Assembly: GCA_964572155.1 (NCBI GenBank) | Contig: CAZNDZ010000001.1 | Coordinates: forward strand, 974,290-1,038,289 | Length of the DNA: 64,000 nt | From: an uncultured Planctomycetales bacterium | Lineage (GTDB): Bacteria; Omnitrophota; Gorgyraeia; Zapsychrales; Fredricksoniimonadaceae | Reading direction: 5' to 3' | Part shown: piece by piece, positions 12,913 to 44,479 of the stretch | How positions within the stretch are numbered: the stretch's first letter is position 1 | How the letters are laid out: every line of letters begins with the position of its first letter | Notes under the pieces: model-generated | Told to the model about the DNA's origin: nothing | Database searches by the model: none | Seen by the model: only the letters and a program-made list of their open reading frames with translations | Translations under genes and position numbers: made by a program

Positions 12913-12915
12913 TAT

Positions 12916-14193: not shown

Positions 14194-14201
14194 GACATTG
14201 C

Positions 14202-15623
14202 ATGCGTTATAAAATCATGTTGATGATGACGGTTGTCTTTATATCGACCCAGTGCCACGCAGGTACTTTAACAAGCACCATTAGTGATCAAGACGCTGTG
14301 GAGGTGACTGTCTATAATAGTAACTTGGGCTTGGTCAAAGACACGCGTCATTTTAAAGTAAACAGCGGAGTTAATGAATTACGTTTTATGGACGTGGCCT
14401 CTTCTATTATGCCTCAGACGGTGCAAATAAAACCTTTAGATAATGTTGATGCATTTTCTGTTTTAGAACAGAATTATGAATATGATCTGATGGATTCTAA
14501 TAAATTAATGGATAAGTACGTCGGGAAAAGCATTAGATTGATGACAAAAAATCCTTACCAAGATAAGACGGATATTGTTGAGGCGACTTTGCTGAGTAAC
14601 AATAACGGCCCGATTTACAAAATTGGCGATGAAATTTATTTGAATTATGGTGGTTCACCTATACTGCCAAAGATTCCTGAGAATTTGGTATCAAAGCCGA
14701 CGCTGACATGGTTATACAAATCTAAAACAGATGCTAAGCAAAATGTGCAAGTTTCCTATTTAACCAATGGCATAGGTTGGAAGGCAGATTATATCCTAGT
14801 GACAAATAAGGAAGATAATGGCGCTGATTTAAGTGGTTGGGTGACATTGGATAATAATAGCGGCGCAGAATATAAAAATGCCAAATTAAAACTTGTTGCT
14901 GGGAATGTAAACCGAGTACAAGACATGCGAGCTAATGTTGGCTATTTGAAAGCTGCCAGAGCGATGGCCATGGAAAGTGATGCGGCAGGAGGGTTTCAAG
15001 AACAATCATTTTTTGAATATCATATTTATGATTTACAACGCAAGACCACCATTAAGAATAATCAAAGTAAGCAAGTAAGTTTGCTAGAAGCTTCAAAGAT
15101 TAAAGTAGAAAAAGAATTTATGGTGCAAGCGGATCAAAATTATTTCTGGGGAAATTATGGTGGGCAAGAATTAAAGCAGCCGGTTAATGTCTACTTGAAG
15201 TTCAAGAACTCAAAAGAAAATCATATGGGGATGCCGTTGCCAGCTGGGACCATGCGTTTGTATAAGGAAGATGGTCAAAAGAGTTTGCAGTTTATTGGTG
15301 AAGACGCTATCAAGCATACACCCAAGGATGAAGATGTTGAGATTAAAGTGGGTGAAGCTTTTGATGTGGTGGCAAAACGTGTCCAAATGAATTTTGTGCA
15401 GCGTTCTAATTATTTTGAGATGACGTGGGAATTAACGGTTCGTAATCACAAAGAAGAAGATATTACGGTTGGCTTTAAGGAGCCCCTTTATGGTGATTGG
15501 AAAATCACCTCCAGCAGTCATTCATATAAAAAGCTTGATGCAAATTCAGCACGTTTTGATGTTGCCGTACCAAAAGATGGTGAAGTCAAGGTAAGTTATA
15601 CCGTTAATATCCGACGCAACTAA
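14202..15623 (+). CDS. secreted hypothetical protein (signal peptide; DUF4139-like)
   Basis: 473 aa; N-terminal MMTVVFISTQCHA signal; embedded between thiolase and FadB genes. Confidence 0.45.
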   Translation: MRYKIMLMMTVVFISTQCHAGTLTSTISDQDAVEVTVYNSNLGLVKDTRHFKVNSGVNELRFMDVASSIMPQTVQIKPLDNVDAFSVLEQNYEYDLMDSNKLMDKYVGKSIRLMTKNPYQDKTDIVEATLLSNNNGPIYKIGDEIYLNYGGSPILPKIPENLVSKPTLTWLYKSKTDAKQNVQVSYLTNGIGWKADYILVTNKEDNGADLSGWVTLDNNSGAEYKNAKLKLVAGNVNRVQDMRANVGYLKAARAMAMESDAAGGFQEQSFFEYHIYDLQRKTTIKNNQSKQVSLLEASKIKVEKEFMVQADQNYFWGNYGGQELKQPVNVYLKFKNSKENHMGMPLPAGTMRLYKEDGQKSLQFIGEDAIKHTPKDEDVEIKVGEAFDVVAKRVQMNFVQRSNYFEMTWELTVRNHKEEDITVGFKEPLYGDWKITSSSHSYKKLDANSARFDVAVPKDGEVKVSYTVNIRRN

Positions 15624-15628
15624 CAGGA

Positions 15629-29202: not shown

Positions 29203-29292
29203 GGAGAGGTGGCCGAGTGGTTGAAGGCGCACGCCTGGAAAGCGTGTGGACGTGAAAGCGTCTCGAGAGTTCGAATCTCTCCTTCTCCGCCA
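29203..29292 (+). tRNA. tRNA-Ser (anticodon GGA)
   Basis: GGAGAGG..CTTCTCC acceptor, long variable arm, anticodon loop CTGGAAA, GTTCGAATC T-loop, GCCA end; 7 nt after ABC-F stop. Confidence 0.85.
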
Positions 29293-29303
29293 GATTTTTC
29301 TCT

Positions 29304-29398
29304 AAGCGTTAGTTCACCAACCTGAAGGAGGGGAACTAACGCAATACTAGAGAAAAATCAAGGATGCCTGTGAGCCAACAGGCGAGTAGGCGCCGCCA
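29304..29398 (+). ncRNA. conserved structured element (copy 1): hairpin + conserved 3' module ending GGCGCCGCCA
   Basis: ~85% identical to 57674..57769 in the 3' 60 nt; 5' hairpin GCGTTAGTTC/GAACTAACGC covaries with the GCGATGAACTTTT/AAAAGTTTATCGC stem in copy 2. Confidence 0.45.
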
Positions 29399-29420
29399 GT
29401 CCCCGCACAGAGCATGGACA

Positions 29421-29438
29421 GACGAGTCGGCGCCGCCA
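29421..29438 (+). repeat. partial tandem reiteration of the element 3' motif (GACGAGTCGGCGCCGCCA)
   Basis: Near-duplicate of GGCGAGTAGGCGCCGCCA 23 nt downstream of copy 1. Confidence 0.4.
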
Positions 29439-29599
29439 GCCACGGATTAAGTCCCGCGCAAATACATTCATCATTTTTCCCTCTTAATAAATCATCTCCA
29501 ATTCTTTTACACACATCTATACTTTCTTAAAAAGTTAGTTATAGTAATAAATGGTATGGTTTTCATAAGATCAAAGATTTTAAGAAATAATAGAAAATT

Positions 29600-31672
29600 A
29601 TGACAAAACATTTTTGGCCCAAGCGATTTATGACTTGGCGGGATTTGATTATTACACCCGCAATTGAAGGGCTACTTTTTTTTATTTCTATCAAAGCTGG
29701 GCTTTATACCTATCGACAACGTCCTGATTTGTTTTTGGCTTTTATTGTTTCGTATGCAACGTTAATTTTCGGGACTGTCGTGGTATTGATAATTCTTCGC
29801 AGAATCGCTCCCGTGCGTGAAGGAAAATTTTCTCGTGAAGAGGAGCCGGGACGATTTTATGTTTGGAAACTGCATCAGTTTCTATCGCTGATTAATCTGT
29901 ACATTCACTATCAAAATAGTCTCTTACCGCCGCCAATTCGAAAATTTTTTAGCCGTCTTTTGGGAGCTAAAATGGGAAAAGGTTTGATTTCCATTGGTGG
30001 GCTGATGATAGATCCTTACCTTATTGAAGTTCAAGAAAATGCCATGATAGGGCGTGATGTTCTGATTTTGCCTTCAATATTAGATCAAAAAGAGCTCACG
30101 TTACGCCGCATTGTAGTTAAATCCGGGGCTGTTATAGGAGCGCGGTCCGTGCTTTTGCCAGGGGTCACGGTAGGAAAAAGTGCAATGGTAAAAGCAATGT
30201 CGTTAGTACCTGAGGGAACTGTCATTGGAGATTACGAAATTTGGGGAGGCATTCCAGCCCAAAAGATGGGTGAAATTCCAAGACCAGAAACTCCTGCAGA
30301 GCCAAGATTTGGGGCATGGCGGGACATGGTGATTAGTCCTTTGGTTGAACTGTTTTTATTAACGCTTTCAGGCTGGGGAGCATGGTGTGTGGTTAGTAAG
30401 TACGGTGGAGGACTTTTTGTAGCCATGCTTGCAGGGTATATATTCTTGGTAGCATCGACGATCATTTTTATTCGGATTTTGCAGGCAATTTATCCTTTTC
30501 GATCAGGAACCTTTTCTTTTGAAAAGCAACCTGAAGTTTGTTATTTATGGAATTTAAAAGAATTCTTATGCATTATGAATCTCTTTATCCATTACCAAAA
30601 TGGTCTTGTACCGTCTTCACTACAAAAGTTGTTTATGTGGCTTTTAGGAATGCCCTGGAAAACAAGAAACGGCTTACTCTCAGCGAGTGGGGTCATTACT
30701 GATCCGAGTCTTGTTGAATTAGAAGAGGGAGTTATTCTTCATCATGACGCTTTTCTTTTACCTCATGCGGTAGCAGTAGATTCCTTGGTGTTAAAAAAAA
30801 TTAGCATTAAACGCGGCGCTTTAATTGGTGCCCGTGCTATGATCATGCCTGGAGTGACGGTGGGTGAATACGCCCAGGTGTTACCGATGTCATTGGTTAC
30901 GATGGACAAAACGATTCCTTCTTACGAAATATGGGGCGGAGTTCCTGCCCGCAAAGTGGGAGAAGTTCCTCGGATGTCCAGAGAAGTCGAAGGATCCTAT
31001 AGTACAACAAATATTTGGGATCGGGTGATAACAATCGGCGTCGAAATCTTTTTAGGATTTCTGGCATGGCAGGGTATGAAGATTGTGGAAAAATTTCTTA
31101 CTCTTGACCTCTTTGGAAAAATATTAGTTCTTTATCTTCTTTTTAGTTTGGCAACTATTGTTGTACTGATGTTTATTCGAACCATTTTTCCTTTTTGGCA
31201 AGGAGTTTATCGACAAAAGGAATATCCTGCTATTTTTACAATATGGCGTTTGCACGCCTTCTTGTGTATAACCAACTTGTTTTTGTTTTATCAAAATGGG
31301 CTTTTGCCGCCTCCCTTGCGGAAATTTTTCATTATGCTCCTTGGAGCTCGGGTTAGGTTAAACGATGTGTTATCTATCGGAGGCATCGTCGCAGATCCTT
31401 ATTTCTTCTCGATTGACGACAATGCTATGATCTTAACCGATGTTTTGATTATGCCGGTTTGCATAGGTCAAGGTGAAATCCGATTGAAGAAAATTGAGTT
31501 ACGAGAAAGAGCTATTGTTTGTGAACGCGTTATACTCATGCCAGGGGTCAGGGTAGGGGAAGGGGCATATGTTATGCCAATGTCCTGGGTCCAGGAAGAT
31601 ACCAAAATTGGCCCTGGCGAAATTTGGGCAGGAATTCCCGCCCAAAAGGTTGGTATGGTTAATGAAAGCTAG
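29600..31672 (+). CDS. triplicated transmembrane hexapeptide-repeat (left-handed beta-helix) transferase-like protein; resembles the tandem C-terminal domains of Pls-type NRPS-like polymerases
   Basis: 690 aa made of three ~230-aa homologous units, each with 2 TM helices, an NL(Y/F)IHYQN(G/S)L(L/V)PxxxxK(F/L)F..LLG block, a GAR..PGV.VG hexapeptide block and a terminal EIWGG(I/V)PA(Q/R)K(V/M)G motif. Confidence 0.6.
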   Translation: MTKHFWPKRFMTWRDLIITPAIEGLLFFISIKAGLYTYRQRPDLFLAFIVSYATLIFGTVVVLIILRRIAPVREGKFSREEEPGRFYVWKLHQFLSLINLYIHYQNSLLPPPIRKFFSRLLGAKMGKGLISIGGLMIDPYLIEVQENAMIGRDVLILPSILDQKELTLRRIVVKSGAVIGARSVLLPGVTVGKSAMVKAMSLVPEGTVIGDYEIWGGIPAQKMGEIPRPETPAEPRFGAWRDMVISPLVELFLLTLSGWGAWCVVSKYGGGLFVAMLAGYIFLVASTIIFIRILQAIYPFRSGTFSFEKQPEVCYLWNLKEFLCIMNLFIHYQNGLVPSSLQKLFMWLLGMPWKTRNGLLSASGVITDPSLVELEEGVILHHDAFLLPHAVAVDSLVLKKISIKRGALIGARAMIMPGVTVGEYAQVLPMSLVTMDKTIPSYEIWGGVPARKVGEVPRMSREVEGSYSTTNIWDRVITIGVEIFLGFLAWQGMKIVEKFLTLDLFGKILVLYLLFSLATIVVLMFIRTIFPFWQGVYRQKEYPAIFTIWRLHAFLCITNLFLFYQNGLLPPPLRKFFIMLLGARVRLNDVLSIGGIVADPYFFSIDDNAMILTDVLIMPVCIGQGEIRLKKIELRERAIVCERVILMPGVRVGEGAYVMPMSWVQEDTKIGPGEIWAGIPAQKVGMVNES

Positions 31673-31683
31673 TTATATAATTC

Positions 31684-32910
31684 ATGACTCGAAAAAAACG
31701 CATATTATTTATTGGTGAAGGTGGCAGTCTGGCGCATATTGTGAGGCCTTTGGTTTTGGCTAAGCTTTTGGATCCAGAGCGGTTTGAAATTTCTTTTGCC
31801 TGCGCCCTGTGGTATAAATGGTTGCTAGATCATAGTGGCTTTCAATATTTTCCTTTGCCAACAATGACGCGAGATGACTTTCGTGATCATTTGAGTGCAG
31901 GACAGCCGCTCTATAATCGTGCGACATTAGAAGAGTATGTTGCGGCAGAATTAGATTTATTTAAAAAACTTTCGCCGGACTTAATTGTTGGTGATTTTCG
32001 AATTTCTCTTGGGGTATCAACCCAGTTAACCAAAATACCATACGCGGCTATTTCGAATGCGTTTTGGAGTCCTAATTCGACGTTAAAGAAGATTGTACCA
32101 GATTTAGGTTTTCTGAAATTTACAGGCAGAGAACTTGGACAACTTATTTTTGATCTGGCATATCCAATTGCAGCAACAACAACTCATAGCCATGGTTTTA
32201 ATGCGGTACGCAAATCATATGGGCTTGAACCCTTTAAAAGGCTGGAAGAAATATATACATTCGCGGATTGGACGCTATATACCGATATCCCAAGTTTGGC
32301 TCCAACTAAGGTTTTAGGAGAAGGCGAGCAGTACATGGGGCCGATCTTGGATATGCCTCAAATTGAGCAGCCGACATGGTGGCAACAGTGGCCTAAAGAC
32401 AAACCCATTGTTTATGTTGGTTTAGGATCAACTGGAAATATTACGCTCATGGAGAATATCATTGAAGCGTTATCGCAAATGGACGTAACTGTTTTATTAG
32501 CCACGGCGCAGCGGGTGAATCGCAAAGAATGGCCCAGTAATTTTTTTGTAGCTCCTTATATCTCAGGGCTTGAAGCATCAGCACAATCACAACTTATTTT
32601 ATATAACGGTGGCTCAGGGAGTGTTTATCAGGCTTTGTCCTGTGGGCGTCCTGTTTTAGGCTTTCCGACGAATATGGACCAATTTTTATGTATGTCCTTG
32701 ATTGAAACAAAAATGGCTGGTAAGAAAATTATTGGCACTTCAGCCAATGTGAATAACATTAAAGCCAATGTTGCAGAAATTTTATCTAATCCAGGGTATA
32801 GTCAAGGTGCGCAAGCTTTAGCGCAGGAAATAAAGCAATATAAAGTGGAAGAAAATTTCCCCAAGTTTATTGATGCTTGGGATAAAGGCATTCTCAAACG
32901 GAGATCCTAA
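31684..32910 (+). CDS. MGT-family (UDP-glycosyltransferase/macrolide-GT-like, GT1) glycosyltransferase
   Basis: 408 aa; N-terminal ILFIGEGGSLAHIVRPL acceptor-domain start, C-terminal LILYNGGSGSVYQALSCGRP..G.P donor-binding signature. Confidence 0.75.
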   Translation: MTRKKRILFIGEGGSLAHIVRPLVLAKLLDPERFEISFACALWYKWLLDHSGFQYFPLPTMTRDDFRDHLSAGQPLYNRATLEEYVAAELDLFKKLSPDLIVGDFRISLGVSTQLTKIPYAAISNAFWSPNSTLKKIVPDLGFLKFTGRELGQLIFDLAYPIAATTTHSHGFNAVRKSYGLEPFKRLEEIYTFADWTLYTDIPSLAPTKVLGEGEQYMGPILDMPQIEQPTWWQQWPKDKPIVYVGLGSTGNITLMENIIEALSQMDVTVLLATAQRVNRKEWPSNFFVAPYISGLEASAQSQLILYNGGSGSVYQALSCGRPVLGFPTNMDQFLCMSLIETKMAGKKIIGTSANVNNIKANVAEILSNPGYSQGAQALAQEIKQYKVEENFPKFIDAWDKGILKRRS

Positions 32911-32911
32911 T

Positions 32912-34531
32912 ATGGATGAAAATATAATATCAACAGAGTGGGATTATATCATTGTCGGTACAGGCATGGGCGGCGCAACAATTGGCTATGCTTTGGCAAA
33001 AGCAGGAAAGAAGGTTTTGTTTTTAGAAAAGGGGCAGGACTATCAAAATAATCCCAAAGCTTTAAAAGGAAATTTTTTAGAAGAGTTTATTTCAAAAGAA
33101 GATGTTCAAGGTACTGCGGGTGATTATTGTAATGCTGGTCGGGCAAATATGGAAATCTGGGATGCTGCCAATGGCAAAACCTTAAAACCTCTCTTGGGTT
33201 CTGGTAGCGGTGGATCAACGGCACTTTTTGGGATGGTCATGGAGCGACTATGGCCCCAAGATTTTGAACCAAAAAAATATCATCCCAATGCGGACAAGGA
33301 CTGTTCGCTTCCAGAACGGTGGCCTATTACCTTTGCAGAGATAGAGCCATATTATCGTCAAGCAGAATGGTTGTATGGCGTGACCAGTACATGGCCAGAT
33401 CCAATGCGCGCAGATCAAACTTTTAGTTATAGGCCTGGGCCAGAACCAATGCCTAAAACATTACGTTTAATGAATGCCCTCAAGAAGCGCGGTTATCATC
33501 CATATTTATCGCCCTTGGCGTTGGATTGGGTTCCTGATTGTAAGTTCTGTCAAAGCTACTTATGTGAAAAAAATTGTAAGAATGACGCGGCAAAGATTTG
33601 CCTTAACCCTTCACAAAAGAAATTTGGAGCTACGTTATTAACAAATTGTGAGGTCTTGCGTTTAGATGCGGATGAGCATCGTGTTCGCTCTGTGCAAGCG
33701 CGTTATCAAGGCAAGGAAATTACATTAAAGGGGCGGTATGTGATTTTAGCGACGGGTGCGCTATCAACGCCGCTGTTGTTATTGCAGTCGAGCTCCAATA
33801 TTTGGCCCAATGGTTTAGCCAATCGCTCCGGTCTTGTTGGGAAAAATCTGATGCGTCATTACATTGATATTTTGGCATTGTTCTCGCGTACGCCATTCCC
33901 AAAAAACTCGACACTTAAGGAGATCGCTTTAAGTGATTTTTATTGTGTTAAAGGGGAAAAGTTTGGCATCATAGGATCTTTTGGACATATGCCACCTACA
34001 ATGATGGTCTTAAATGATATAGAAAATGATATGCGAAGTCATGGTTCTAAATTTGCATCGCTTTTTCATGCCATGCGTCCTCTAACGGGTTGGTTCTTAT
34101 CTAGATTATTAGATCAGGCGGGTTATGCATCTTTGATATTAGAAGATCTTCCTTATCCGGATAATACCGTATCGTTGCGTAAAGACGGGAATGGCTCACA
34201 AATGGCTGTCAATTATCGCATTCGTCCATCGGAATGGGAACGCATTAAGCGTTTTCGCACCATGGCCCAGAAAGCATTTGCACCAAATCCGATGATGCTA
34301 ATGCCTCAGGCTGATAACTTAAAGTTTTTAGCGCATGCTTGTGGAACGTGTCGTTTTGGAGATGATCCTGCTTCGAATGTTCTAAATAAATTTAATCGCA
34401 CGCATGATGTAGAAAATTTATATATTATTGATGCATCATTTTTCCCCTCAAGTGGTGGATCAAATCCAGGGTTGACCATTGCCGCCAATGCCTTGCGAGT
34501 GGCGGATCATTTGATTGCTAAGGATGTTTAA
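32912..34531 (+). CDS. GMC-family FAD-dependent oxidoreductase
   Basis: IIVGTGMGGATIGYALAKAGKKVLFLEKG FAD-binding fold; C-terminal GMC signature; start taken as the ATG 2 nt after the GT stop. Confidence 0.75.
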   Translation: MDENIISTEWDYIIVGTGMGGATIGYALAKAGKKVLFLEKGQDYQNNPKALKGNFLEEFISKEDVQGTAGDYCNAGRANMEIWDAANGKTLKPLLGSGSGGSTALFGMVMERLWPQDFEPKKYHPNADKDCSLPERWPITFAEIEPYYRQAEWLYGVTSTWPDPMRADQTFSYRPGPEPMPKTLRLMNALKKRGYHPYLSPLALDWVPDCKFCQSYLCEKNCKNDAAKICLNPSQKKFGATLLTNCEVLRLDADEHRVRSVQARYQGKEITLKGRYVILATGALSTPLLLLQSSSNIWPNGLANRSGLVGKNLMRHYIDILALFSRTPFPKNSTLKEIALSDFYCVKGEKFGIIGSFGHMPPTMMVLNDIENDMRSHGSKFASLFHAMRPLTGWFLSRLLDQAGYASLILEDLPYPDNTVSLRKDGNGSQMAVNYRIRPSEWERIKRFRTMAQKAFAPNPMMLMPQADNLKFLAHACGTCRFGDDPASNVLNKFNRTHDVENLYIIDASFFPSSGGSNPGLTIAANALRVADHLIAKDV

Positions 34532-35370
34532 TGAGTGTTGTGCGCAGACAACTTGATGTAACACAATTAAAAGGGGATTGGGCTTTAGTTACCGGAGCTT
34601 CAGCTGGTATAGGTAAGGAATTCTGTATTCAACTGGCTCAACATGGCATGAATGTTATCATGGTGGCCAGACGTCAACATCTTTTAGATGCCTTGGCACA
34701 TCAGCTTGAAGATGATTTTAAGATCAGATGTTTGCCCATTGCATTAAGTTTAGATGACCCTCAATCAATTACGAAGATTAGAAAAGTTGTTAATGCTGAA
34801 AAAATCAAGATCCGATTGCTCGTTAATAATGCTGGTATAAATTATTATGGACGATTTGAATCGATGGATGCTGGACAGAATATTCAAATGATGTATTTGA
34901 ATATAGTTGCTGTCTCATTATTGTGTAGAGAATTTTTAAATGATCTTAAGGATTTTCCGACGAGTGCTATAGTCAATATTTCATCTCAAGCTGCTCTTAA
35001 TCCAATTCCAGGGGCAGCCTTATATGCAGCGACCAAAGCATTTGTGCATAGTTTGAGTTTGTCTTTGTATGAAGAACTTAAACGTACAAGTGTCATCGTG
35101 CAAACGGTAATTCCATGTCCTACAGAAACGGAATCTTCACGCAGCACAGATGTAAGATTTGGGAAGATAAAGGGCTGGCGAAGTGTAACAGAAGTTGTTA
35201 AGATTTCATTAGATCATTTAAAAATAGATGAGCCTGTTACCGCAATTGCCGAAAATCTTTTTATACAAAAACTTTTTGTCAATTTAATGTCAGAGAAAGT
35301 AGTTTTAGCCAAAATGGGCTCAATCTTTTTAGACAGAAATGTATTTAATAAAGATAAGGAGATGGAATGA
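34531..35370 (+). CDS. short-chain dehydrogenase/reductase
   Basis: [11 protein letters not shown] and YAATKAF (YxxxK). Confidence 0.75.
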
Positions 35371-36233
35371 AAGGTATTATCTTAGCGGGAGGCAGGGCAA
35401 CAAGGCTTTATCCAATTACCAAAGGGGTCTGCAAACAGCTTTTGCCAATTTACGATAAGCCGATGGTTTATTATCCGTTGTCAGTACTCATGCTTGCTGG
35501 CATTAAAGATATTCTGATCATATCCACGCCTGATGATTTACCTAAGTTTGAAAATCTTTTTGGGGATGGAAAGTGGCTCGGGGTAAAGATTTCTTATGCC
35601 GTTCAGCATCAACCAAAAGGTATTGCGCAGGCCTTTCTCGTGGCTGAGGAATTCATTGATAATAAACCAGTGTGTTTGGTTTTGGGTGATAATATCTTTT
35701 ACGGCGGCAATTTACCAAAATATCTAAAGCAAGCAGTGAGCATTAAACAAGGCGCCACTGTCTTTGGTTATAATGTCACCGATCCACAGCGCTATGGTGT
35801 GGTCTCATTTAATAAGAATATGAAAGCAGAATCTATCGTTGAAAAACCAGTAAATCCTAAATCTAGTTGGGCAGTGACGGGGTTATATTTTTATGATAAT
35901 CAAGTCGTTAAGATTGCCAAAGCATTAAAGCCGTCTGCACGAGGTGAGTTAGAAATTACGGATGTCAATAAAGTGTATTTGGCTAAAAAGAAATTAAATG
36001 TGCAATTGATGGGGCGTGGGTACGCGTGGCTCGATACTGGTACATATCAATCATTAATTGATGCGTCGGTGTTTATTAAAACTATAGAAGAACGTCAGAA
36101 TTTGAAGATCGGTTGTATTGAAGAAATTGCGTATAAACAAGGTTGGATCAATAAGTCCCAATTATTAGCCTTAGCCAAAGGAATTCCGACAAGCTATGGT
36201 GAATATCTAAAAAGGATTGCGATAAATGAATAA
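35367..36233 (+). CDS. rfbA: glucose-1-phosphate thymidylyltransferase
   Basis: [33 protein letters not shown]-terminal signature; 288 aa. Confidence 0.9.
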
Positions 36234-37059
36234 AGATATCTTAATTATAGGTGATGGTTATATCGGTCGTAAATTATCAAAGGCGCTTAATGCACGCTTA
36301 TCGGCCAAACGTGTTCGTTTTTATGAAGACGTTGAAGGATTGGTTAAGAAATATCGTCCTAAGATTTTGATCAATACAATCGGCCATGTGGGTAAATCTA
36401 ACGTTGATGATTGCGAAAAGGCAGTGGATAAGACCCTTAATGCAAATACCTTTGTGCCTATTCTCATGGCGGAAGTGGCTTTGCGTTACAATATTAAGTT
36501 AGTCCATATTAGCAGTGGATGTATCTATCATTACAAATATGGCCATCAGAAACCTATTCTAGAAAGTCGCAATCCAGATTATTACGATTTATTTTATAGC
36601 CGTACAAAAATTTATACAGAAGATGCGTTACTGCGTTTGTCACGCAAAAAAAACATGGTTAATATTTTGATCGTGCGCATTCGCGTGCCTTTAGACAATG
36701 TGCCAAATCCCAAGAACTTACTGACCAAGTTAATCAAGTATGGTAAGGTGATTGATGCGCCTAATTCAGTGACGTATATTCCAGATTTTATTGAGGCTCT
36801 AAAGCATTTGATTCGCAAAGACGCTAAGGGTTTATATAATGTTATGGCGGATGGGGCTTTGTATTATCCAGACTTGATGAAGCTTTATCAAAAATATGAT
36901 CCTAAGTTCAAATTCGAGATCATCAAGCTTAAGAATTTGTCATTAAAACGTACCAGTCTAATCATGTCGACGACAAAATTACAAAAAAGTGGTTTTAAAG
37001 TAAGACCTATCAAGGAGATAATAAAAGAATGCGTGGAAAATTACACACAATCCTCGTAA
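36226..37059 (+). CDS. dTDP-4-dehydro-6-deoxyhexose reductase (RfbD-like NAD(P)-dependent reductase)
   Basis: 277 aa; [13 protein letters not shown] nucleotide-binding start, YSRTK (YxxxK); positioned between rfbA and rfbB. Confidence 0.6.
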
Positions 37060-38036
37060 CGGGGGCAGCAGGTTTTATTGGTAGTGAATTTGTTAGGCAG
37101 AAAGTTAAAGACGCAAATGTTAAAATCATTGCGGTTGATAAGCTAACCTATGCGGGTGATGTTAAGCGATTTGCAGAGGTCAAAAATAAATTTAAATTCT
37201 ATAAAGCTGATATTTCTAATCGTGTTCAATTGGAGCGTGTTTTTAAAGCCCATCGTCCTGATACCATTATCCATTTTGCCGCTGAAACGCACGTTGATAG
37301 AAGCATCCGTGATGTCTGGCCGTTTATATCAACGAACGTAAATGGCACACAAAATTTGATTGATTTGGTTCGAAAATATAAAACCCCCAAAATGGTGCAT
37401 ATTTCAACCGATGAGGTTTATGGTGATAGCCATAAAGGATGGTTTAAAGAAACCGATCAAATTAAAGCTAACAATCCATATTCTGCAACGAAAGCCGCCG
37501 CTGAACATTTGATTAGAGCTGCGATACGCACATATCAATTTCCAGCCATCATTATACGCCCGTCGAATAATTATGGGTATTGGCAATATCCTGAGAAATT
37601 AATCCCCGTGGTCATTTTAAAGGCTTTGAATAATGAACGGGTTCCAGTTTATGGGAAGGGTAAGCAGGTTAGAGAATGGCTTCATGTTAGCGATTGCGCT
37701 AGAGCTGTGGATACGATTTATAAAAAAGGTAAAATTGGAGAGACCTACAATATAGGTACGTATTATGAACAAGAAAATATTAAGACCGTTGAAATGATTT
37801 TAAAACGTATGAATAAACCAAAGAGTTTAATTCAGTTTGTTCCAGATCGTCTAGGTCATGATTTCCGCTATTCTGTCGATTGTTCGAAACTTGAAAAGTT
37901 GGGTTGGAAGCCAAAGGTTGATTTCACATCTGGTCTTGATCATACCGTGACGTGGTTTTTAGATAACTTGCCATGGGTTGAACAAAAACGAAAAGTGATT
38001 AAATCGTTTTGGGACAAGGTTTATAAAATGAAATAG
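37029..38036 (+). CDS. rfbB: dTDP-glucose 4,6-dehydratase
   Basis: [25 protein letters not shown] motifs; 335 aa. Confidence 0.9.
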   Translation: MRGKLHTILVTGAAGFIGSEFVRQKVKDANVKIIAVDKLTYAGDVKRFAEVKNKFKFYKADISNRVQLERVFKAHRPDTIIHFAAETHVDRSIRDVWPFISTNVNGTQNLIDLVRKYKTPKMVHISTDEVYGDSHKGWFKETDQIKANNPYSATKAAAEHLIRAAIRTYQFPAIIIRPSNNYGYWQYPEKLIPVVILKALNNERVPVYGKGKQVREWLHVSDCARAVDTIYKKGKIGETYNIGTYYEQENIKTVEMILKRMNKPKSLIQFVPDRLGHDFRYSVDCSKLEKLGWKPKVDFTSGLDHTVTWFLDNLPWVEQKRKVIKSFWDKVYKMK

Positions 38037-38136: not shown

Positions 38137-41100
38137 ATGGCTAATGCTGTTAGGGTTTTTTTATCGCAAAGGATTGTAATGCCGATTGTTAAGGACGATA
38201 AGAGCTTAGAGCGTGTCGCGGGTGAGGTGGCTTTTCAGCGGGGGATGAGTTATTACCGAAAAGGTGCGGTTAAGACCGTTGCACGTAAGGGTAATTATTT
38301 AGAAGGTTTGGTCCAAGGATCAGATACCGATCCGTTTCATGTGCGGATTTTGATCAAGGGCTTAGATAATTTTCGTTTAGCAGAATGCACGTGTCCCTTC
38401 AAATTGGGAAGCATGTGCAAGCATGCCGTTGCTGTTTTGTTGCATTGGAATCATTATGTGGCGATCAACCATACCGTTGATTTAAGCAAAATGATTTTCT
38501 TAGACGAGAAGCAGCTGCGTTTAAATGCGCAGCAGAAACCAGTGGTTAAGGCAGTTACCGAATCGTCGACAAAATCAGAAGCAAAGCCTAAGCCAAAGAG
38601 GCCAAGTTATCTTCTACCTGCTTATGAATATAGGTCCCCACAAAAGCCGCGTATCCAAATTGCCTTTGCCTTAAATGGCTTCAATGGTAATGGCTTAAGA
38701 AGCATACCGTTTAAAATCTTTATCATTCACAGCGACATAAAACTTTCCGTCACAAATTTACGTGTCTTAATCAATCAAAATAATGCGCGGGATTCAAAAC
38801 AATTTAAGTTTTCAACGTTAAGCGCGTCTCAGCAACATGTCTTGCATTTGCTCAATGAGTTTTCCGTCATGGATGGAAGTCGAGACAATGGTTTTGCAGT
38901 GCCGCAATTTAAAATGAAGCGCATGCAATGGGCCATCTGTTTAGGCGTTATGGCCAAGTGTGAAGATCTTGAATTTGTCGATATTAAAACCAATCAAGCC
39001 ATAACTGTAAATGCACTAGACAAGTTAATACTGAGCATCCATATCCGTCAGATGGAGCAAGGGCAATGGGGCGTTACGGCAACATTCAAAGATCCTAATA
39101 ATGCTACGCGTGATTTTAGTCATGTGCATATTCAAGAAGGTCAGCCGGTATGGTTATATGATGAGGCCATTCCAAGTTTTCAAATGATGCATGAGTCGAT
39201 AAGTCATGCATTTTTAGTCGATTTTCTTAATAATGAACGCGTCCTTGATTTACCTCAAATCCCATATTTTATGACCAGTGTCCTTGATTCATTACGATCA
39301 TCGTGTGAGATCATAGGAGATGTCGACGCAATTCAAAAAGCCACCTTTATCAAGCCAACATTAAAGTCTCGTTTAGATTTAAACTATGTGAAGAATGCAG
39401 TCCGCGCTAAGTTGTCATTTATTTATGATAACGGCACGGCATATGCCTATGAAGGGGATATGAGTTTAGAGCGCTATGCCATGGTGGGAGATGATAAAGC
39501 CATGCAATGGGTTGTGCGTGATCTCGATGAGGAAAATGCCAAGGTGTCTTTTCTTCTCAAAGATTGTGGTTTTGAATGGGGTAAGAATTCTAAAACCTTT
39601 TCATTAACAGGTTCTGATGAGATCCTAGGATTTGTTTATCAAAAGTTGCCAATGTTGCGACGATCCATGGAAGTTCATTGTTCTAAAGATTTTGAAGCAA
39701 AATTATTAAACAACAATTTCTTTGAGCCTGTGGTACGACTGACAGGAAGTGGTATTGACTGGTTTGAGTTTGATGCGGTTTACAAAGTTAAAGGTTTAGA
39801 TGAAACCATCACGCACGAGAAAATAAAGCGGTTAATCGCAGAAGGGCAGAACTTTATTCGATTAAAGAAGGGTGAGATTTTACCCATCCCGCTTGAATTT
39901 TACGAACGCATTGAGCAGTTAAACGAAGAGTTAGACACTAAGAAGATCCATTTATCCCAAATCCCATTTGTGATGGATGAGTTAAAGCGCCAAGGTTTAA
40001 CTTCAGACGTTGATCAAAATTTATCCACGTTATATCGAGATTTGAAAAACTTTCAATCCATCGAGCCGGCAACCGTCCCTGATTCAGTTAAGGAAGTCCT
40101 GCGTGATTATCAACATAAGGGTGTGGATTGGTTATCGTTTTTAAAGCGTTTTAAGTTTGGTGGTATTCTGGCTGATGAAATGGGTCTTGGTAAAACGTTG
40201 CAGGCATTGACCATGGTTCAGTTGGAAATAGAAGCAGGAAATGCCATGCCATCCTTAGTCGTGTGCCCAACAACGTTAGTTTGGAATTGGCATGAAGAAA
40301 TAAAGAAGTTCTTACCTAATGCCCGCGTATTAATTCTAAATGGAAATCATCGTCGTGATTTATTTGATCAAATCAAAGATGCGCATGTGGTCATCACATC
40401 ATATCCATTATTGCGTCGTGATATTGAGCTTTATAAGAAATTTTCTTTTAATTATGTCATTTTAGACGAAGCTCAAAATATTAAGAATCGTCATACACAA
40501 AATGCACAAGTAGCCAAGTCATTAAAAGCCACGTATCGTCTTGCCATGACGGGTACGCCCATTGAGAACAGCATCATGGATTTGTGGTCGATCTTTGATT
40601 TCTTAATGCCTGGCTTTTTAGGTAATGCGAATAACTTCAAGAAGCGTTATGAAATACCTATCACTAAGTTTCAAGATAAAGATCAGTTAACCAAACTTTC
40701 AAGCCGTATCTTGCCGTTTGTCTTAAGACGTCTTAAGAAAGACGTTATTAAAGATTTGCCGGATAAGATCGAACAGATTTCATATTGTGAGTTGGAACCA
40801 ACACAGGCTAAGATTTATACGAAGATGATTGAGTCGGCACGTGACATTGCAACCAAGAGCGTGGCCACCCAAGGTTTTGAAAAAAGCCGTATGGTGATCT
40901 TAACGTTGATCTTGCGGCTACGCCAAATTTGTTGTCACCCCATCATCGCACAAGTCGATCTTGGGCATCGCAATGTTTCAGGTAAGATGGAATTGCTTAA
41001 AGAGACATTAGCAGAGTTATTATCTGGTGGGCACAAGGTTTTGATCTTTAGCCAATTTGTTTCGATGCTTAACTTTATGGAAGATTATTTGAAACGTGAA

Positions 41101-41490
41101 GATATTGCCTATGCATATCTTGATGGGTCGAGCAAAGACCGTCAAGGCGAGGTCGAGCGTTTTAATCAAGATCCTAACCTAAAAGTTTTCTTATTAAGTT
41201 TAAAAGTAGGTGGTGTAGGTTTAAATTTAACGTCTGCAGATACGGTCATCATCTACGAACCATGGTGGAATCCCGCTGTTGAAAACCAAGCCATCGACCG
41301 TGTTCACCGCATCGGCCAAAATAATTCTGTCTTAGCCTATCGTTTAATCACCAAAGGCACCATCGAAGAAAAAATGCTAGAACTCCAAAACCGCAAACGC
41401 TTTCTCATGGATTCTCTAGTTTTATCTGAAGACAGCATCGGCAAAAAGCTTGATTGGGAAGATATTAAGTTCCTGTTGGATATGAAATAG
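38137..41490 (+). CDS. SNF2-family DNA-dependent ATPase/helicase with N-terminal SWIM zinc finger
   Basis: CxC..CxH SWIM (ECTCPFKLGSMCKHAVAVLLHW); DEMGLGKT, DEAQNIKN, helicase-C (LKVGGVGLNLTSADTV..E..WNPA...QA.DR.HRIGQ). Confidence 0.8.
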   Translation: MANAVRVFLSQRIVMPIVKDDKSLERVAGEVAFQRGMSYYRKGAVKTVARKGNYLEGLVQGSDTDPFHVRILIKGLDNFRLAECTCPFKLGSMCKHAVAVLLHWNHYVAINHTVDLSKMIFLDEKQLRLNAQQKPVVKAVTESSTKSEAKPKPKRPSYLLPAYEYRSPQKPRIQIAFALNGFNGNGLRSIPFKIFIIHSDIKLSVTNLRVLINQNNARDSKQFKFSTLSASQQHVLHLLNEFSVMDGSRDNGFAVPQFKMKRMQWAICLGVMAKCEDLEFVDIKTNQAITVNALDKLILSIHIRQMEQGQWGVTATFKDPNNATRDFSHVHIQEGQPVWLYDEAIPSFQMMHESISHAFLVDFLNNERVLDLPQIPYFMTSVLDSLRSSCEIIGDVDAIQKATFIKPTLKSRLDLNYVKNAVRAKLSFIYDNGTAYAYEGDMSLERYAMVGDDKAMQWVVRDLDEENAKVSFLLKDCGFEWGKNSKTFSLTGSDEILGFVYQKLPMLRRSMEVHCSKDFEAKLLNNNFFEPVVRLTGSGIDWFEFDAVYKVKGLDETITHEKIKRLIAEGQNFIRLKKGEILPIPLEFYERIEQLNEELDTKKIHLSQIPFVMDELKRQGLTSDVDQNLSTLYRDLKNFQSIEPATVPDSVKEVLRDYQHKGVDWLSFLKRFKFGGILADEMGLGKTLQALTMVQLEIEAGNAMPSLVVCPTTLVWNWHEEIKKFLPNARVLILNGNHRRDLFDQIKDAHVVITSYPLLRRDIELYKKFSFNYVILDEAQNIKNRHTQNAQVAKSLKATYRLAMTGTPIENSIMDLWSIFDFLMPGFLGNANNFKKRYEIPITKFQDKDQLTKLSSRILPFVLRRLKKDVIKDLPDKIEQISYCELEPTQAKIYTKMIESARDIATKSVATQGFEKSRMVILTLILRLRQICCHPIIAQVDLGHRNVSGKMELLKETLAELLSGGHKVLIFSQFVSMLNFMEDYLKREDIAYAYLDGSSKDRQGEVERFNQDPNLKVFLLSLKVGGVGLNLTSADTVIIYEPWWNPAVENQAIDRVHRIGQNNSVLAYRLITKGTIEEKMLELQNRKRFLMDSLVLSEDSIGKKLDWEDIKFLLDMK

Positions 41491-41606
41491 TTGACTTTGC
41501 CTTACAAATATGCAAAATGTTTTAAAGAAGCCCTTCGTCCGTTTTACTCCTGCCGCTTCTGAAGTTAATTAATCGTTATAGTCTAAAACCTATCAGGAGG
41601 GCTTCC

Positions 41607-42638
41607 ATGCTACCTAAAAGCTACGGCGTTTTTCTATCTGATTTAAAAAAACGTATTGTACAAGAGCGTTTAAAAGTCGTTTTGTCCACCAATGCTGCAT
41701 TAGTAATGATGTATTGGGATATAGGTCAAGCAATCTTAAATAAACAAAAAGAAGAAGGTTGGGGCACAAAAGTCATTGATAGATTGTCGTTAGACTTAAG
41801 TAAGTCTTTTCCTGACATGAGTGGTTTCTCACCAAGAAATTTGAAATATATGCGTGCGTTTGCTGAAGCGTGGAAAAATAGATCAATTGTGCAGCGGGCC
41901 GTTGCACAATTGCCTTGGAGGAGTAATATTGCATTATTAGATAAGTTAGAAACAATTCAAACAAGGTTATGGTATGCACAAAAAACAATTGAGTGTGGAT
42001 GGAGTAAAGATATTTTATGTGTTCAGATTGAAAATCAATTACATTTACGACATGGGAATATAACACATAATTTTGTAGAATCTTTGCCACCAACAGAATC
42101 TGATATGGCTCAACAGATATTTAAAGATCCATATCTCTTTGATTTCTTAGGAACAGGTGATCCAAGAAGAGAAGCTGAATTAGAACAAGGCTTAATGGAT
42201 CATATACAGAAGTTTCTTTTAGAGTTAGGGGCTGGTTTTGCCTTTGTTGGTCGTCAAGTTCGTCTTGAATTAGGTGGTGATGAGTTCTTTATTGATTTGT
42301 TATTTTATCATCTAAAACTTCGTTGTTACGTTGTTATTGAGTTAAAAGCTGTGGCATTTGATTCTGGGCATATTGGTCAATTAAATATGTATTTAAACGT
42401 AGTTGATGATATATTCCGTCATCCAGATGATAAGCCAACTATAGGTCTGCTTTTAGTTAAACATAAGAATAAGATGGTTGCTGAATATGCATTGCGTGGA
42501 TTTAAAAAGCCGATTGGCGTTGCTCAATGGGAAACAGAGATAACACGTTCATTGCCAAAGAAACTTAAAACAAGTTTGCCAACCATTGAAGAGCTTGAAA
42601 CAGAATTGAGTAAAGATGTATCCAGTAAGGGTAAATGA
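41607..42638 (+). CDS. YhcG-like PD-(D/E)XK nuclease family protein (DUF1016)
   Basis: 343 aa; C-terminal GFAFVGRQ..DLLFYH..YVVIELK PD-(D/E)XK core. Confidence 0.6.
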   Translation: MLPKSYGVFLSDLKKRIVQERLKVVLSTNAALVMMYWDIGQAILNKQKEEGWGTKVIDRLSLDLSKSFPDMSGFSPRNLKYMRAFAEAWKNRSIVQRAVAQLPWRSNIALLDKLETIQTRLWYAQKTIECGWSKDILCVQIENQLHLRHGNITHNFVESLPPTESDMAQQIFKDPYLFDFLGTGDPRREAELEQGLMDHIQKFLLELGAGFAFVGRQVRLELGGDEFFIDLLFYHLKLRCYVVIELKAVAFDSGHIGQLNMYLNVVDDIFRHPDDKPTIGLLLVKHKNKMVAEYALRGFKKPIGVAQWETEITRSLPKKLKTSLPTIEELETELSKDVSSKGK

Positions 42639-42679
42639 TGGTAAGATTTCTGCATCAAAAATTTATTTAAGGAAATAAA

Positions 42680-44479
42680 ATGTCACAAATTCTCGAACAC
42701 AAACTAGATATTTTAAAATCGGTTTTTGGTTATCAATCGTTTCGGCCGTTGCAGGAGGCGTGTATTGATGCGGTTTTAAATAAGCAGGATACATTGTTGC
42801 TCATGCCAACGGGTGGGGGTAAGTCGATTTGTTATCAGATTCCTGCGTTGATGTTTGATGGGTTGACTGTTGTTATCTCGCCGCTGATTTCGCTCATGAA
42901 GGATCAGGTGAGCCAATTAAAAGCGTTGGGTGTTGAGGCGGAGTTATTAAATAGTTCATTGACGTGGGAAGAATATGCGTATAACAAAGATCGTATTGTA
43001 TCTGGTGTAACCAAGCTGTTGTTCTGCGCGCCTGAGACATTATTTAAAGAAGAGATTTTAGATATGCTCGGGTCCTTAAAGATTGATTGTATCACGATCG
43101 ATGAAGCACATTGTATTTCGGAGTGGGGGCATGATTTTAGGCCAGAATATCGTCGGATAAAAGATATACGCCATTTATTTCCGGATGCAGTCTATTTAGC
43201 AGTGACCGCAACAGCTACACCTCAAGTGCGCCAAGACATCATTGTAAATTTAAACCTTAAGAAACCCTTACAACTGGTTGCTAGTTTTAACCGTGATAAT
43301 TTATTCTATGAGGTAACCCCGCGTAATCGTGGCACGGATCAAGTGGTGGAATTCTTAGAGAGATTTCGTGGCTTAAGCGGCATCATTTATTGTTTTTCGC
43401 GCAAGCAAGTCGACCAATTAACCAAGGATTTAAAACATTTTGGATTCAAAGCATTGCCGTATCATGCAGGTTTAAGCGACGACGTGCGTCATAAAAATCA
43501 AGAAGCGTTTATCCGCGACGATGTGCCCATCATGGTTGCAACCATTGCCTTTGGGATGGGGATTAACAAGCCAAACGTTCGTTTTGTCATTCATCATGAT
43601 TTGCCCAAAAATATTGAGTCTTATTATCAAGAGACGGGTCGTGCAGGGCGCGATGGTTTGCCGTCGCATTGTTTGTTGTTATTTTCTGCAGGTGATGGTG
43701 CGAAAATCCGTTATTTTATTGATCAAAAACCAGACATCGCCCAGAAACGCGTCGCGACCAATCATTTAAACACCATGATGGCCTATGCCCAAGCACACAC
43801 ATGCCGACGCATCCCATTGATCACATATTTCGGGGAAGACTACAAAATAGAAAATTGCGGGCAATGCGATAATTGTGTCAACGGTCATGCAGCGCCTGAG
43901 AATATTACGGTTGAAGCCATCAAATTTTTGCAATGTGTAAGCGAGACGGAAGAACGCTTTGGCGCGGTTTATGTCATTAACATTTTACGTGGTAGTCAGA
44001 TTGAGAAAGTTTTGCAAAACAATCATGATACCTGTGCGACCTTTGGTGCAGGCAAGCATTTAACTGTCTTGCAATGGCAACATTTGGTGTCACAATTCTT
44101 AGCTCAAGATTTGATTAGTAAGAGTGAGGATTATGGTGTCATTAGTCTTAATCAAAACGCTTATGAGGTTCTAAGCGGCAGGCGTTTGGTTTCAGGGTAT
44201 CATTTAGAAGAAGCTAAAAGTTCTAAGAAGACAACCCGACGTGTGGAAGGCCTTGGTGATACTGACCCCGAAGCCGCTTTATTTGAACGTTTGCGCGTTT
44301 TACGTAAACGATTAGCCGATGAAAAAAGTGTACCGCCCTACATTATTTTTTCTGATAAGACCTTACTTGATATGTGCAAACGCAAACCTAAAACCAAGGC
44401 ACAATTTGCGCAAGTTTATGGGGTGGGGGATCAAAAGTTACAAATGTATTGCGATGTTTTTATTTCTGCAATAGGATAA
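42680..44479 (+). CDS. recQ: ATP-dependent DNA helicase RecQ
   Basis: MPTGGGKS, DEAHC, zinc-binding CxxC..C..C RQC region, C-terminal HRDC; 599 aa. Confidence 0.9.
   Translation: MSQILEHKLDILKSVFGYQSFRPLQEACIDAVLNKQDTLLLMPTGGGKSICYQIPALMFDGLTVVISPLISLMKDQVSQLKALGVEAELLNSSLTWEEYAYNKDRIVSGVTKLLFCAPETLFKEEILDMLGSLKIDCITIDEAHCISEWGHDFRPEYRRIKDIRHLFPDAVYLAVTATATPQVRQDIIVNLNLKKPLQLVASFNRDNLFYEVTPRNRGTDQVVEFLERFRGLSGIIYCFSRKQVDQLTKDLKHFGFKALPYHAGLSDDVRHKNQEAFIRDDVPIMVATIAFGMGINKPNVRFVIHHDLPKNIESYYQETGRAGRDGLPSHCLLLFSAGDGAKIRYFIDQKPDIAQKRVATNHLNTMMAYAQAHTCRRIPLITYFGEDYKIENCGQCDNCVNGHAAPENITVEAIKFLQCVSETEERFGAVYVINILRGSQIEKVLQNNHDTCATFGAGKHLTVLQWQHLVSQFLAQDLISKSEDYGVISLNQNAYEVLSGRRLVSGYHLEEAKSSKKTTRRVEGLGDTDPEAALFERLRVLRKRLADEKSVPPYIIFSDKTLLDMCKRKPKTKAQFAQVYGVGDQKLQMYCDVFISAIG

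Follow-up and report, generated by a model that had tools for sequence, protein, structure and literature searches.

Seven genes lying head to tail on one strand, within 64,000 nucleotides of DNA from an uncultured Planctomycetales bacterium (assigned to the Omnitrophota by GTDB; contig CAZNDZ010000001.1, positions 974,290 to 1,038,289, the whole stretch being called the window below), raise the question of which sugar they make and what this sugar is attached to. They encode a membrane protein built of three left-handed beta-helix (LbH) units, a glycosyltransferase, two redox enzymes and three enzymes of nucleotide-sugar synthesis. The original prediction, which started from rfbA, rfbB and a reductase with no 3,5-epimerase, was a D-configured dTDP-6-deoxyhexose. 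Another answer is favored here, with a probability of about 0.55: the locus would make and tailor an acylated L-rhamnoside on a membrane-associated acceptor. We infer the product to be a glycolipid-like small molecule, and likewise the order of the steps, the acyl donor and the acceptor. The seven genes, with the names used in the text, are as follows.

29600..31672, + strand: LbH3, membrane protein of 690 residues, predicted acyltransferase (Pfam Hexapep; NCBIfam TIGR02353)
31684..32910, + strand: GT1 (GT-B) glycosyltransferase, predicted rhamnosyltransferase (PF06722, EryCIII-like C-terminal domain)
32912..34531, + strand: GMC-family flavoprotein dehydrogenase, 539 residues from ATG 32912 (GMC_oxred_N and GMC_oxred_C)
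34531..35370, + strand: classical short-chain dehydrogenase/reductase (SDR) of the FabG/mycolate-reductase type (adh_short, 144 bits)
35367..36233, + strand: RfbA/RmlA, glucose-1-phosphate thymidylyltransferase (TIGR01207, 463.6 bits, cutoff 360.65)
36226..37059, + strand: ER, predicted NRS/ER-type bifunctional dTDP-4-keto-6-deoxyglucose 3,5-epimerase/4-reductase of 277 residues (matches to PDB 4qqr and 7jid)
37029..38036, + strand: RfbB/RmlB, dTDP-glucose 4,6-dehydratase (TIGR01181, 402.1 bits, cutoff 365.1)

All seven open reading frames (ORFs) are present exactly at these positions of the + strand, between 29600 and 38036. The families first assigned to them agree with Pfam and NCBIfam, the RmlD label of the sixth gene by a weak match only, and rfbA and rfbB proved genuine, both scoring over their cutoffs.

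A predicted bifunctional enzyme in place of RmlC and RmlD

Among solved structures, the best matches of ER are the Arabidopsis NRS/ER enzyme (4qqr, E=6e-29) and the UDP-L-rhamnose synthase L780 of Mimivirus (7jid, E=4e-19), to be compared with 3e-3 for RmlD. A family profile of 30 members ranks them in the same way, with 180 bits for 4qqr, 139 bits for 7jid and 65.7 bits for the best RmlD. Against TIGR01214, the RmlD model, ER scores 39.2 bits and does not reach the cutoff of 224, with a weak RmlD_sub_bind match besides, whereas the canonical RmlDs of two other loci (L071 and L079) score 311 and 324 bits. The reductase triad Ser97/Tyr124/Lys128 is kept in 119-121 of the 121 closest relatives aligned. 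Two more residues, Cys99 (36520-36522) and Lys168 (36727-36729), are invariant in all 121 and align to Cys108 and Lys175 of L780, which were identified as key catalytic residues by mutagenesis (PMC9614988). At these places the canonical RmlDs of L071 and L079 have S-T-D-H/Y, where ER has S-S-G-C, and Ala or Thr instead of the lysine. Judged by its sequence, the 277-residue protein is not an RmlD but a member of the NRS/ER family, whose 3,5-epimerase/4-reductases are bifunctional.

The plant enzyme (UER1, 4qqr), L780 and ER have in common the S/T-Y-K triad, the Cys/Lys epimerisation pair and a similar length (289-301 residues for the first two, 277 for ER). The window protein differs from both in that it is about 25% identical to them, comes from a bacterium (Omnitrophota) and has its gene in translational coupling with those for a thymidylyltransferase and a dTDP-glucose dehydratase. 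L780 takes a dTDP- as well as a UDP-linked substrate (PMC9614988); since ER is coupled to RfbA and RfbB, its expected substrate is dTDP-linked rather than UDP-linked. Some family members are already labelled "3,5-epimerase/4-reductase" in JGI records, and in a survey published in 2011 the known bacterial homologues numbered only four, each of them from Verrucomicrobia; its authors speculated that a prokaryotic donor already had the epimerase and the reductase merged (PMC3220709). No biochemical characterisation of a bacterial family member was found in the literature.

As an NRS/ER-type protein would perform both the epimerase and the reductase steps, no separate RfbC is needed, and the absence of rfbC, explained in this way, says nothing about a D-sugar. 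The refuting condition named with the original prediction, an rfbC just outside, turned out to be beside the point: no RmlC (PF00908 or TIGR01221) was found among about 60 window ORFs scanned against Pfam and NCBIfam, but none is required. The D-configured sugar deduced from the missing rfbC is not supported, since the reading frame at 36226-37059 is of the NRS/ER type and carries the Cys/Lys pair. For ER to be a 4-ketoreductase only, with GT1 transferring a D-configured dTDP-6-deoxyhexose (D-quinovose or D-fucose), one could invoke the missing RmlC, the weak matches to RmlD_sub_bind and TIGR01214 and the lack of characterised bacterial relatives. This alternative is nevertheless highly improbable: of the characterised proteins, the bifunctional enzymes are the closest to ER, with E-values lower by over 25 orders of magnitude, its 121 aligned relatives all keep the epimerase Cys and Lys, which canonical RmlDs lack, and GT1 orthologues in other phyla adjoin canonical RmlC/RmlD genes, that is, those of L-rhamnose.

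The three genes rfbA, ER and rfbB most likely form a complete route whose predicted product is dTDP-L-rhamnose; taken alone, L-rhamnose as the sugar made is quite probable from these comparisons. With respect to the RmlA-RmlB-RmlC-RmlD pathway, the RmlA and RmlB of the window are orthodox (over their equivalog cutoffs and linked in an operon) and presumably lead to the same end product, the difference being one NRS/ER-type SDR in place of the cupin RmlC and of RmlD. The same trio is found in metagenomes, where 80 loci encoding ER relatives 54-65% identical were examined. RfbA lies directly upstream of ER in 53 of the 58 assessable loci and RfbB directly downstream in 44 of 53, and an RmlC-like match was seen near ER in one locus out of 80, at 26% identity and 6 kb distant. 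The rfbA-ER-rfbB trio is a conserved, self-sufficient unit.

A probable operon and a module recurring across phyla

The stop and start codons of the seven genes overlap or abut, so that the genes are probably co-transcribed as one operon. LbH3 and GT1 are separated by 11 nucleotides, and GT1 and GMC by a single one, provided that GMC starts at ATG 32912. The following genes overlap, by 1 nucleotide at the TAATG of the GMC/SDR junction, by 4 at the ATGA joining SDR and RfbA, by 8 between RfbA and ER and by 31 between ER and RfbB, this last overlap being kept in two other loci (L013 and L097). For GMC, the TTG at 32870 is an unlikely start and ATG 32912 is probably the right one, because the GMC orthologues are 535-538 residues long. 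The public annotation starts LbH3 at Met11 (29630), which gives 680 residues.

Related gene orders were found in other Omnitrophota. L097 and L098 carry GT1-GMC-SDR-RfbA-ER-RfbB, which are genes 2-7 in the order of the window, and L013-L015 carry GT1-GMC-RfbA-ER-RfbB, that is, genes 2, 3, 5, 6 and 7. The proteins of L097 and L013/L015 are 76-93% identical to those of the window, and the L013 and L097 cassettes occupy a chromosomal position different from that of the window cluster. Because the order recurs in these loci, the seven-gene arrangement is more than chance. The tight junctions and this synteny bear out the single co-directional unit originally described, and the comparison with homologous loci, proposed at that time as a check, gave a positive outcome.

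In a wider comparison, 566 relatives of GT1 were found in GTDB representative genomes (one genome per species), the best match being 77% identical; the neighborhood counts given for GT1 refer to the best 80 loci. A homologue of a single LbH3 unit (transmembrane LbH, TM-LbH), of about 225 residues and usually placed right after GT1, is present in 35 of these loci, a GMC orthologue in 18 and an SDR orthologue in 14, the SDR being accompanied by GMC in all 14. GT1, GMC, SDR and TM-LbH are all present in L025, L034, L046 and L069, and L025 and L069 have them in a single operon, GT1-GMC-SDR-TM-LbH, with all four genes co-directional. GT1-GMC-SDR-LbH is thus a conserved module recurring across phyla, from Omnitrophota to Proteobacteria. 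Two further loci bring in the triple protein itself. The 960-residue protein P0009 is a fusion of an SDR with a triple LbH, encoded 8.6 kb from a 55%-identical GT1 in L001, and in L010 an SDR gene is followed by LbH3-RfbA-ER-RfbB, with an LbH3 46% identical to that of the window. Fusion, adjacency and co-occurrence thereby tie all seven genes together.

Of note, the next genes of this last locus (L010:6264-12790) encode a MacB/FtsX permease, a 347-residue ORF, an Aas-like fusion of major facilitator, acyltransferase and AMP-binding domains (of the lysophospholipid transport and reacylation type), and an alpha/beta hydrolase. These neighbors are one more hint at membrane-lipid chemistry.

The glycosyltransferase and its acceptor

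GT1 reaches PF06722 with 32.3 bits (cutoff 31.7). With TIGR01426 it scores 59.5 bits, under the cutoff of 260, and it misses every NCBIfam subfamily cutoff, including the macrolide type (MGT). The best solved relative found with a family profile is CalG1 (99 bits), over the C-terminal donor half only; no solved relative of the N-terminal acceptor half was detected. The window enzyme therefore resembles the natural-product GT1s, such as CalG1, OleD/OleI and the SpnG-type NDP-rhamnosyltransferases, which act on aromatic or lipid acceptors, by its GT-B fold and its C-terminal NDP-sugar-binding half, and differs from them by an acceptor half with no detectable solved relative.

Some of its orthologues stand beside sugar genes of the classical type. 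In L079, GT1-GMC-SDR is followed by RmlC (223 bits, cutoff 155.75), RfbB, RmlD (over its cutoff of 224) and RfbA; L071 has GT1-RfbB-RfbA-RmlD, and the Planctomycetales loci L016, L017 and L020 have GT1-RfbA-RfbB. As these orthologues from other phyla adjoin canonical rhamnose genes, rhamnose as the donor of GT1 is reinforced. The 177- and 313-residue ORFs after rfbB in L020 were considered as RmlC and RmlD and not retained, for lack of an NCBIfam match at E<=1e-10.

Another frequent neighbor points to the acceptor. In 52 of the 80 loci, the gene directly before the GT1 orthologue (35-46% identity) encodes an OxzB/Rv1355c-type ThiF-nitroreductase, the median distance being -3 nucleotides, and FeeM-like N-acyl amino acid synthases are encoded in 26. 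Oxazolones derived from N-acyl-tyrosines are the products of OxzA/OxzB and of the mycobacterial tyz genes, and the study of OxzB remarked on uncharacterised glycosyltransferases next to some of the oxzB genes. The likeness to these clusters and to those for N-acyl-tyrosines (tyzACB of M. tuberculosis, stieleriacines, thalassotalic acids) lies in the GT1 orthologues placed behind OxzB-like genes, often with FeeM-like, TM-LbH, GMC and SDR genes; the difference is that the window has no relative of OxzA, OxzB, ThiF or FeeM. Since the GT1 family adjoins OxzB-like genes, a lipid-like small-molecule acceptor is favored over an O-antigen. The original reading as a compact biosynthetic locus for a glycosylated small molecule or glycolipid, and not as an O-antigen cluster, is supported in this way by 80 other genomes, in which the family adjoins OxzB-like genes, N-acyl-amino-acid-synthase genes and membrane-anchored acyltransferases.

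XrtA/PEP-CTERM markers (PrsT at 986 bits, TIGR03694, PEP-CTERM proteins) occur in 56 of the 80 GT1 loci, and the arrangement with GT1 behind an OxzB-like gene is found inside PEP-CTERM loci of both Proteobacteria and Planctomycetes. Examples are L020:8025-11203, L022:3626-11260 and L024:3304-12182, within a range from L016 to L094, with a MacB-type exporter also present. No link of oxazolone or N-acyl-amino-acid lipid synthesis and glycosylation with exosortase systems was found in the literature. These markers are an argument for another kind of target, namely a protein or a polymer of the cell envelope instead of a small lipid, such as O-acetylated rhamnose on the lipopolysaccharide core, on a capsule or on secreted proteins of the PEP-CTERM type. 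Hexapeptide O-acetyltransferases are indeed frequent in polysaccharide loci, and LbH3 has weak matches of the WcaF and NeuD types. Such a target appears unlikely, however, as no PEP-CTERM gene is present in the window and no Wzx/Wzy/WecA, polymerase or export genes lie in or beside the locus, none of these families being represented among the window ORFs scanned, in agreement with what had been reported for Wzx, Wzy and WecA. Moreover, the GT1 family typically uses small or lipophilic acceptors, its closest structures are natural-product glycosyltransferases, and its tightest partner elsewhere, OxzB, is a small-molecule enzyme.

The two redox enzymes

GMC matches GMC_oxred_N with 49.5 bits (cutoff 23) and GMC_oxred_C with 71.5 bits (cutoff 24.6). 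Its closest solved structures are the alpha subunit of FAD-glucose dehydrogenase (6a2u/8hdd, E=3.5e-28) and the large subunit of fructose dehydrogenase. A motif C210-x2-C213-x4-C218-x3-C222 (33539-33577), invariant in the 19 orthologues aligned, falls on the stretch of cysteines that binds the 3Fe-4S cluster of FAD-glucose dehydrogenase. This sequence similarity suggests that GMC may oxidise a sugar-like hydroxyl, with electrons leaving through a putative Fe-S cluster. The FAD-glucose dehydrogenase of Burkholderia (6a2u) and the fructose dehydrogenase of Gluconobacter (7w2j) are thus the closest solved relatives of GMC, and its Cys-rich stretch aligns with their 3Fe-4S ligands. They are different in the spacing of the motif (CCxxxxCxxxC, versus CxxCxxxxCxxxC in the window) and in the genes nearby, as no cytochrome c or small chaperone subunit gene adjoins the window GMC. 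The SDR has the motifs TGxxxGIG at residue 21 and YxxxK at residue 165, and reaches no NCBIfam equivalog cutoff.

A predicted triple acyltransferase related to Pls and PosA

LbH3 consists of three repeats, mutually 38-43% identical:

29600-30295, + strand: repeat R1
30296-30985, + strand: repeat R2
30986-31669, + strand: repeat R3

Its AlphaFold model (predicted local distance difference test 84.5, predicted template modelling score 0.85) has 6 long helices and 3 beta-helices, each unit being made of two long helices, a strand, two short helices and a left-handed beta-helix. The prediction that the six long helices span the membrane comes from homology to the PosA model. In the hydropathy profile, K/R-rich segments flank the R1 hairpin and the loop between its helices is short, which places the R1 beta-helix in the cytoplasm; those of R2 and R3 are assumed to be cytoplasmic by homology to R1. 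Such proteins are rare: a search of 5.8 billion clusters gave 22 near full-length relatives (coverage 93-99%) and 2 shorter fragments.

LbH3 has the same fold as the C-terminal polymerisation domain modelled for PosA/Pls (PMC10522769), of which no experimental structure was found in the PDB searches. LbH3 resembles this domain of Pls (epsilon-poly-L-lysine) and PosA (delta-poly-L-ornithine) in its three units, each with a transmembrane hairpin and an LbH, in their pseudo-threefold arrangement and in a homology covering whole units, hairpin included. Each unit is 21-23% identical to a Streptomyces protein of the Pls family, and with a hidden Markov model of the unit, units 1 and 3 were recovered at full length from three Pls-like proteins. 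The window protein differs in being free-standing, without adenylation and thiolation domains, and in keeping a histidine (His389, see below) in repeat 2 only. Could LbH3 then be a Pls/PosA-like membrane-embedded iterative condensing enzyme, building and perhaps exporting an oligomer? The shared three-unit architecture, the homology over the whole unit and the agreement of the LbH3 model with the published description of PosA would fit. This role is very unlikely all the same, because no AMP-binding or PP-binding domain was found by Pfam and NCBIfam in LbH3 or elsewhere in the locus, leaving the protein without adenylation or carrier domain, and because its score with TIGR02353 (180.4 bits, in 3 stretches) is far from the family cutoff of 423.1. 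The nearest relatives of LbH3 are in addition single-unit TM-LbH proteins partnered with GT1 and not with nonribosomal peptide synthetases, and among solved structures the LbH units closest to it are those of CoA-dependent sugar acyltransferases (AntD and maltose O-acetyltransferase, for example).

These single-unit homologues are 27-39% identical to the repeats, with E-values down to 1e-31. In a rough neighbor-joining tree, drawn without support values, the LbH3 repeats form position-specific clades beside a subset of the single-unit proteins and apart from the Pls units. The grouping of the repeats with GT1-associated monomers suggests a triplication independent of that of Pls. The residue equivalent to His389 (30764-30766) is invariant in R2 (19 of 19 triple-LbH proteins) and present in 36 of 37 single-unit relatives; it is mostly replaced in R1 (Ser/Asn) and in R3 (Gly/Val/Leu). 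This pattern would fit a pseudo-trimer that keeps one of three ancestral active sites.

That LbH3 always stands beside sugar genes was considered and rejected, since several homologues occur in housekeeping contexts without any. The more distant triple-LbH homologues in question (41-46% identity; L007, L008, L011 and L012, and L004-L006) have conserved surroundings with sugar genes absent nearby. In the first of them, a XerC-like integrase, a 318-residue ORF and LbH3 precede mraZ and the dcw cluster; in the second, LbH3 has carbamoyl-phosphate synthase and a methyltransferase on one side and a TraF-like gene on the other. The role of the family is therefore not tied to rhamnose everywhere.

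A possible pathway and the arguments against it

The pathway to an acylated L-rhamnoside could run as follows. RfbA would form dTDP-glucose, which RfbB would dehydrate to dTDP-4-keto-6-deoxy-D-glucose. In a single active site, ER would then perform the 3,5-epimerisation (Cys99/Lys168) and the NAD(P)H-dependent 4-reduction (Ser97/Tyr124/Lys128). GT1 would move the rhamnose onto a hydrophobic, membrane-associated acceptor made by no gene of the window. The Fe-S-type GMC and the SDR would next oxidise and reduce, perhaps to epimerise a hydroxyl by oxidation followed by reduction, or perhaps to supply a 3-hydroxyacyl donor. Finally, the membrane-anchored LbH3, its beta-helices on the cytoplasmic side, would O-acylate the glycoside from an acyl-thioester.

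Several points weigh against this scheme. An NRS/ER-type enzyme could also yield a different 6-deoxy-L-hexose, such as 6-deoxy-L-talose, or epimerise only in part. The roles predicted for GMC, SDR and LbH3 come from analogy at the family level, and His389 would be a catalytic base by inference from its conservation alone. No tblastn match to OxzA/OxzB, ThiF, FeeM or PEP-CTERM genes was found in the 64-kb window, in spite of their place beside GT1 elsewhere. The pairing of the rfb trio with the GT1 module is the exception across loci, not the rule: GT1, GMC, SDR and LbH3 occur in none of the 80 metagenome ER loci, where the trio stands alone, and most of the 80 GT1 loci have neither RfbA nor an RfbB match at least 39% identical within 10 kb. 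As GT1 matches solved enzymes over its donor half only, its donor and acceptor specificity is unreadable from sequence.

These last observations could also mean that the modules are mere neighbors, the trio being a housekeeping rhamnose operon for envelope glycans and the GT1 module using another nucleotide sugar. That explanation is unlikely in view of the ATGA overlap joining SDR and RfbA, of the modules joined in three Omnitrophota genomes at two different chromosomal sites and of LbH3 adjoining the trio in L010. The adjacency of GT1 and rfb genes has also arisen independently in Planctomycetales, Myxococcota, Phycisphaerae and Alphaproteobacteria.

The acylated L-rhamnoside remains the preferred product. 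A bolder proposal, which goes further and is doubtful, would make LbH3 an independently evolved counterpart of Pls/PosA, fused from three GT1-partner acyltransferases and coupling (amino)acyl transfer at His389 to the handling or export of the rhamnosylated lipid. The GT1-GMC-SDR-LbH module would then tailor novel glycosylated envelope lipids of the N-acyl-amino-acid/oxazolone type, tied to PEP-CTERM/exosortase systems in Proteobacteria. In a second strand of this proposal, the NRS/ER rhamnose pathway of eukaryotes and giant viruses could have its prokaryotic origin in the rfbA-ER-rfbB operon of Omnitrophota.

Leader region and surrounding genes

Upstream of LbH3, two features precede the operon:

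29203..29292, + strand: tRNA-Ser(GGA) (ARAGORN; Rfam tRNA, 58.4 bits)
29450..29599, + strand: AT-rich 5' region (26% GC), presumed promoter and leader of the operon

The tRNA gene ends 307 nucleotides upstream of LbH3, outside the operon, and is the upstream boundary of the locus. The 150 nucleotides 5' of LbH3 have 26% GC, compared with 40.6% for the window. Promoter-like hexamers are not enriched over shuffled sequences (31 versus 26.3 +/- 5.5), and the scan for promoters and terminators, no better than shuffles, speaks neither for nor against the proposed promoter. The Rfam scan of the leader gave no cis-regulatory match, the tRNA alone being matched. Directly after the tRNA, an inverted repeat of about 65 nucleotides (29293-29359) has chance miRNA-like Rfam matches only; it is followed, in the otherwise AT-rich spacer (29293-29445), by GGCGCCGCCAG occurring twice about 45 nucleotides apart. 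A genomic island was considered and rejected, as the GC content of the cluster (39.8%) equals that of the window and no integrase adjoins the tRNA.

On the other side, rfbB is directly followed at 38137-44479 by co-directional genes for a 1117-residue SWIM/SNF2 helicase, a YhcG/DUF1016 PD-(D/E)XK nuclease and RecQ. In both L013 and L097, where the GT1 cassette has a different chromosomal site, a DUF1016 gene is again found a few kb away from it. At 11431-17752, a co-directional set resembling beta-oxidation genes encodes a FlxY/PaaK-like CoA ligase, a thiolase, a DUF4139 protein and a FadB-like enoyl-CoA hydratase/3-hydroxyacyl-CoA dehydrogenase. The gene at 1080-3047 encodes a bifunctional class II aldolase/SDR (NF006196, 908 bits, cutoff 831), which is related to the rhamnulose-1-phosphate aldolase/dehydrogenases (TIGR02632, 446 bits, under the cutoff); this enzyme, encoded 27 kb away from the genes for rhamnose synthesis, may act in deoxy-sugar catabolism. 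Nearly all genes of positions 1-64000 are on the + strand, 62 of its 64 one-kb segments have a positive GC skew and the cumulative skew rises almost monotonically: the whole window is on the leading strand of one replichore.

Implications

What is new in this locus is the cross-phylum combination of known enzyme families. Two of its parts are unusual, namely the NRS/ER that a bacterium carries within an rml operon and the triple LbH, which is Pls-like but free-standing. In this lineage, rfbA and rfbB with a reductase and no rfbC form an annotation trap, as this set of genes does not imply a D-sugar. The presence of a bifunctional enzyme of the plant and giant-virus type in a bacterial rml operon provides candidates for testing the inheritance of a merged gene proposed in 2011. 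The fused triple acyltransferase and its single-unit relatives show how the Pls/PosA architecture can arise from a homotrimeric membrane enzyme. Finally, the module of GT1, Fe-S-type GMC, SDR and LbH shared across phyla offers a handle on envelope or signalling glycolipids.

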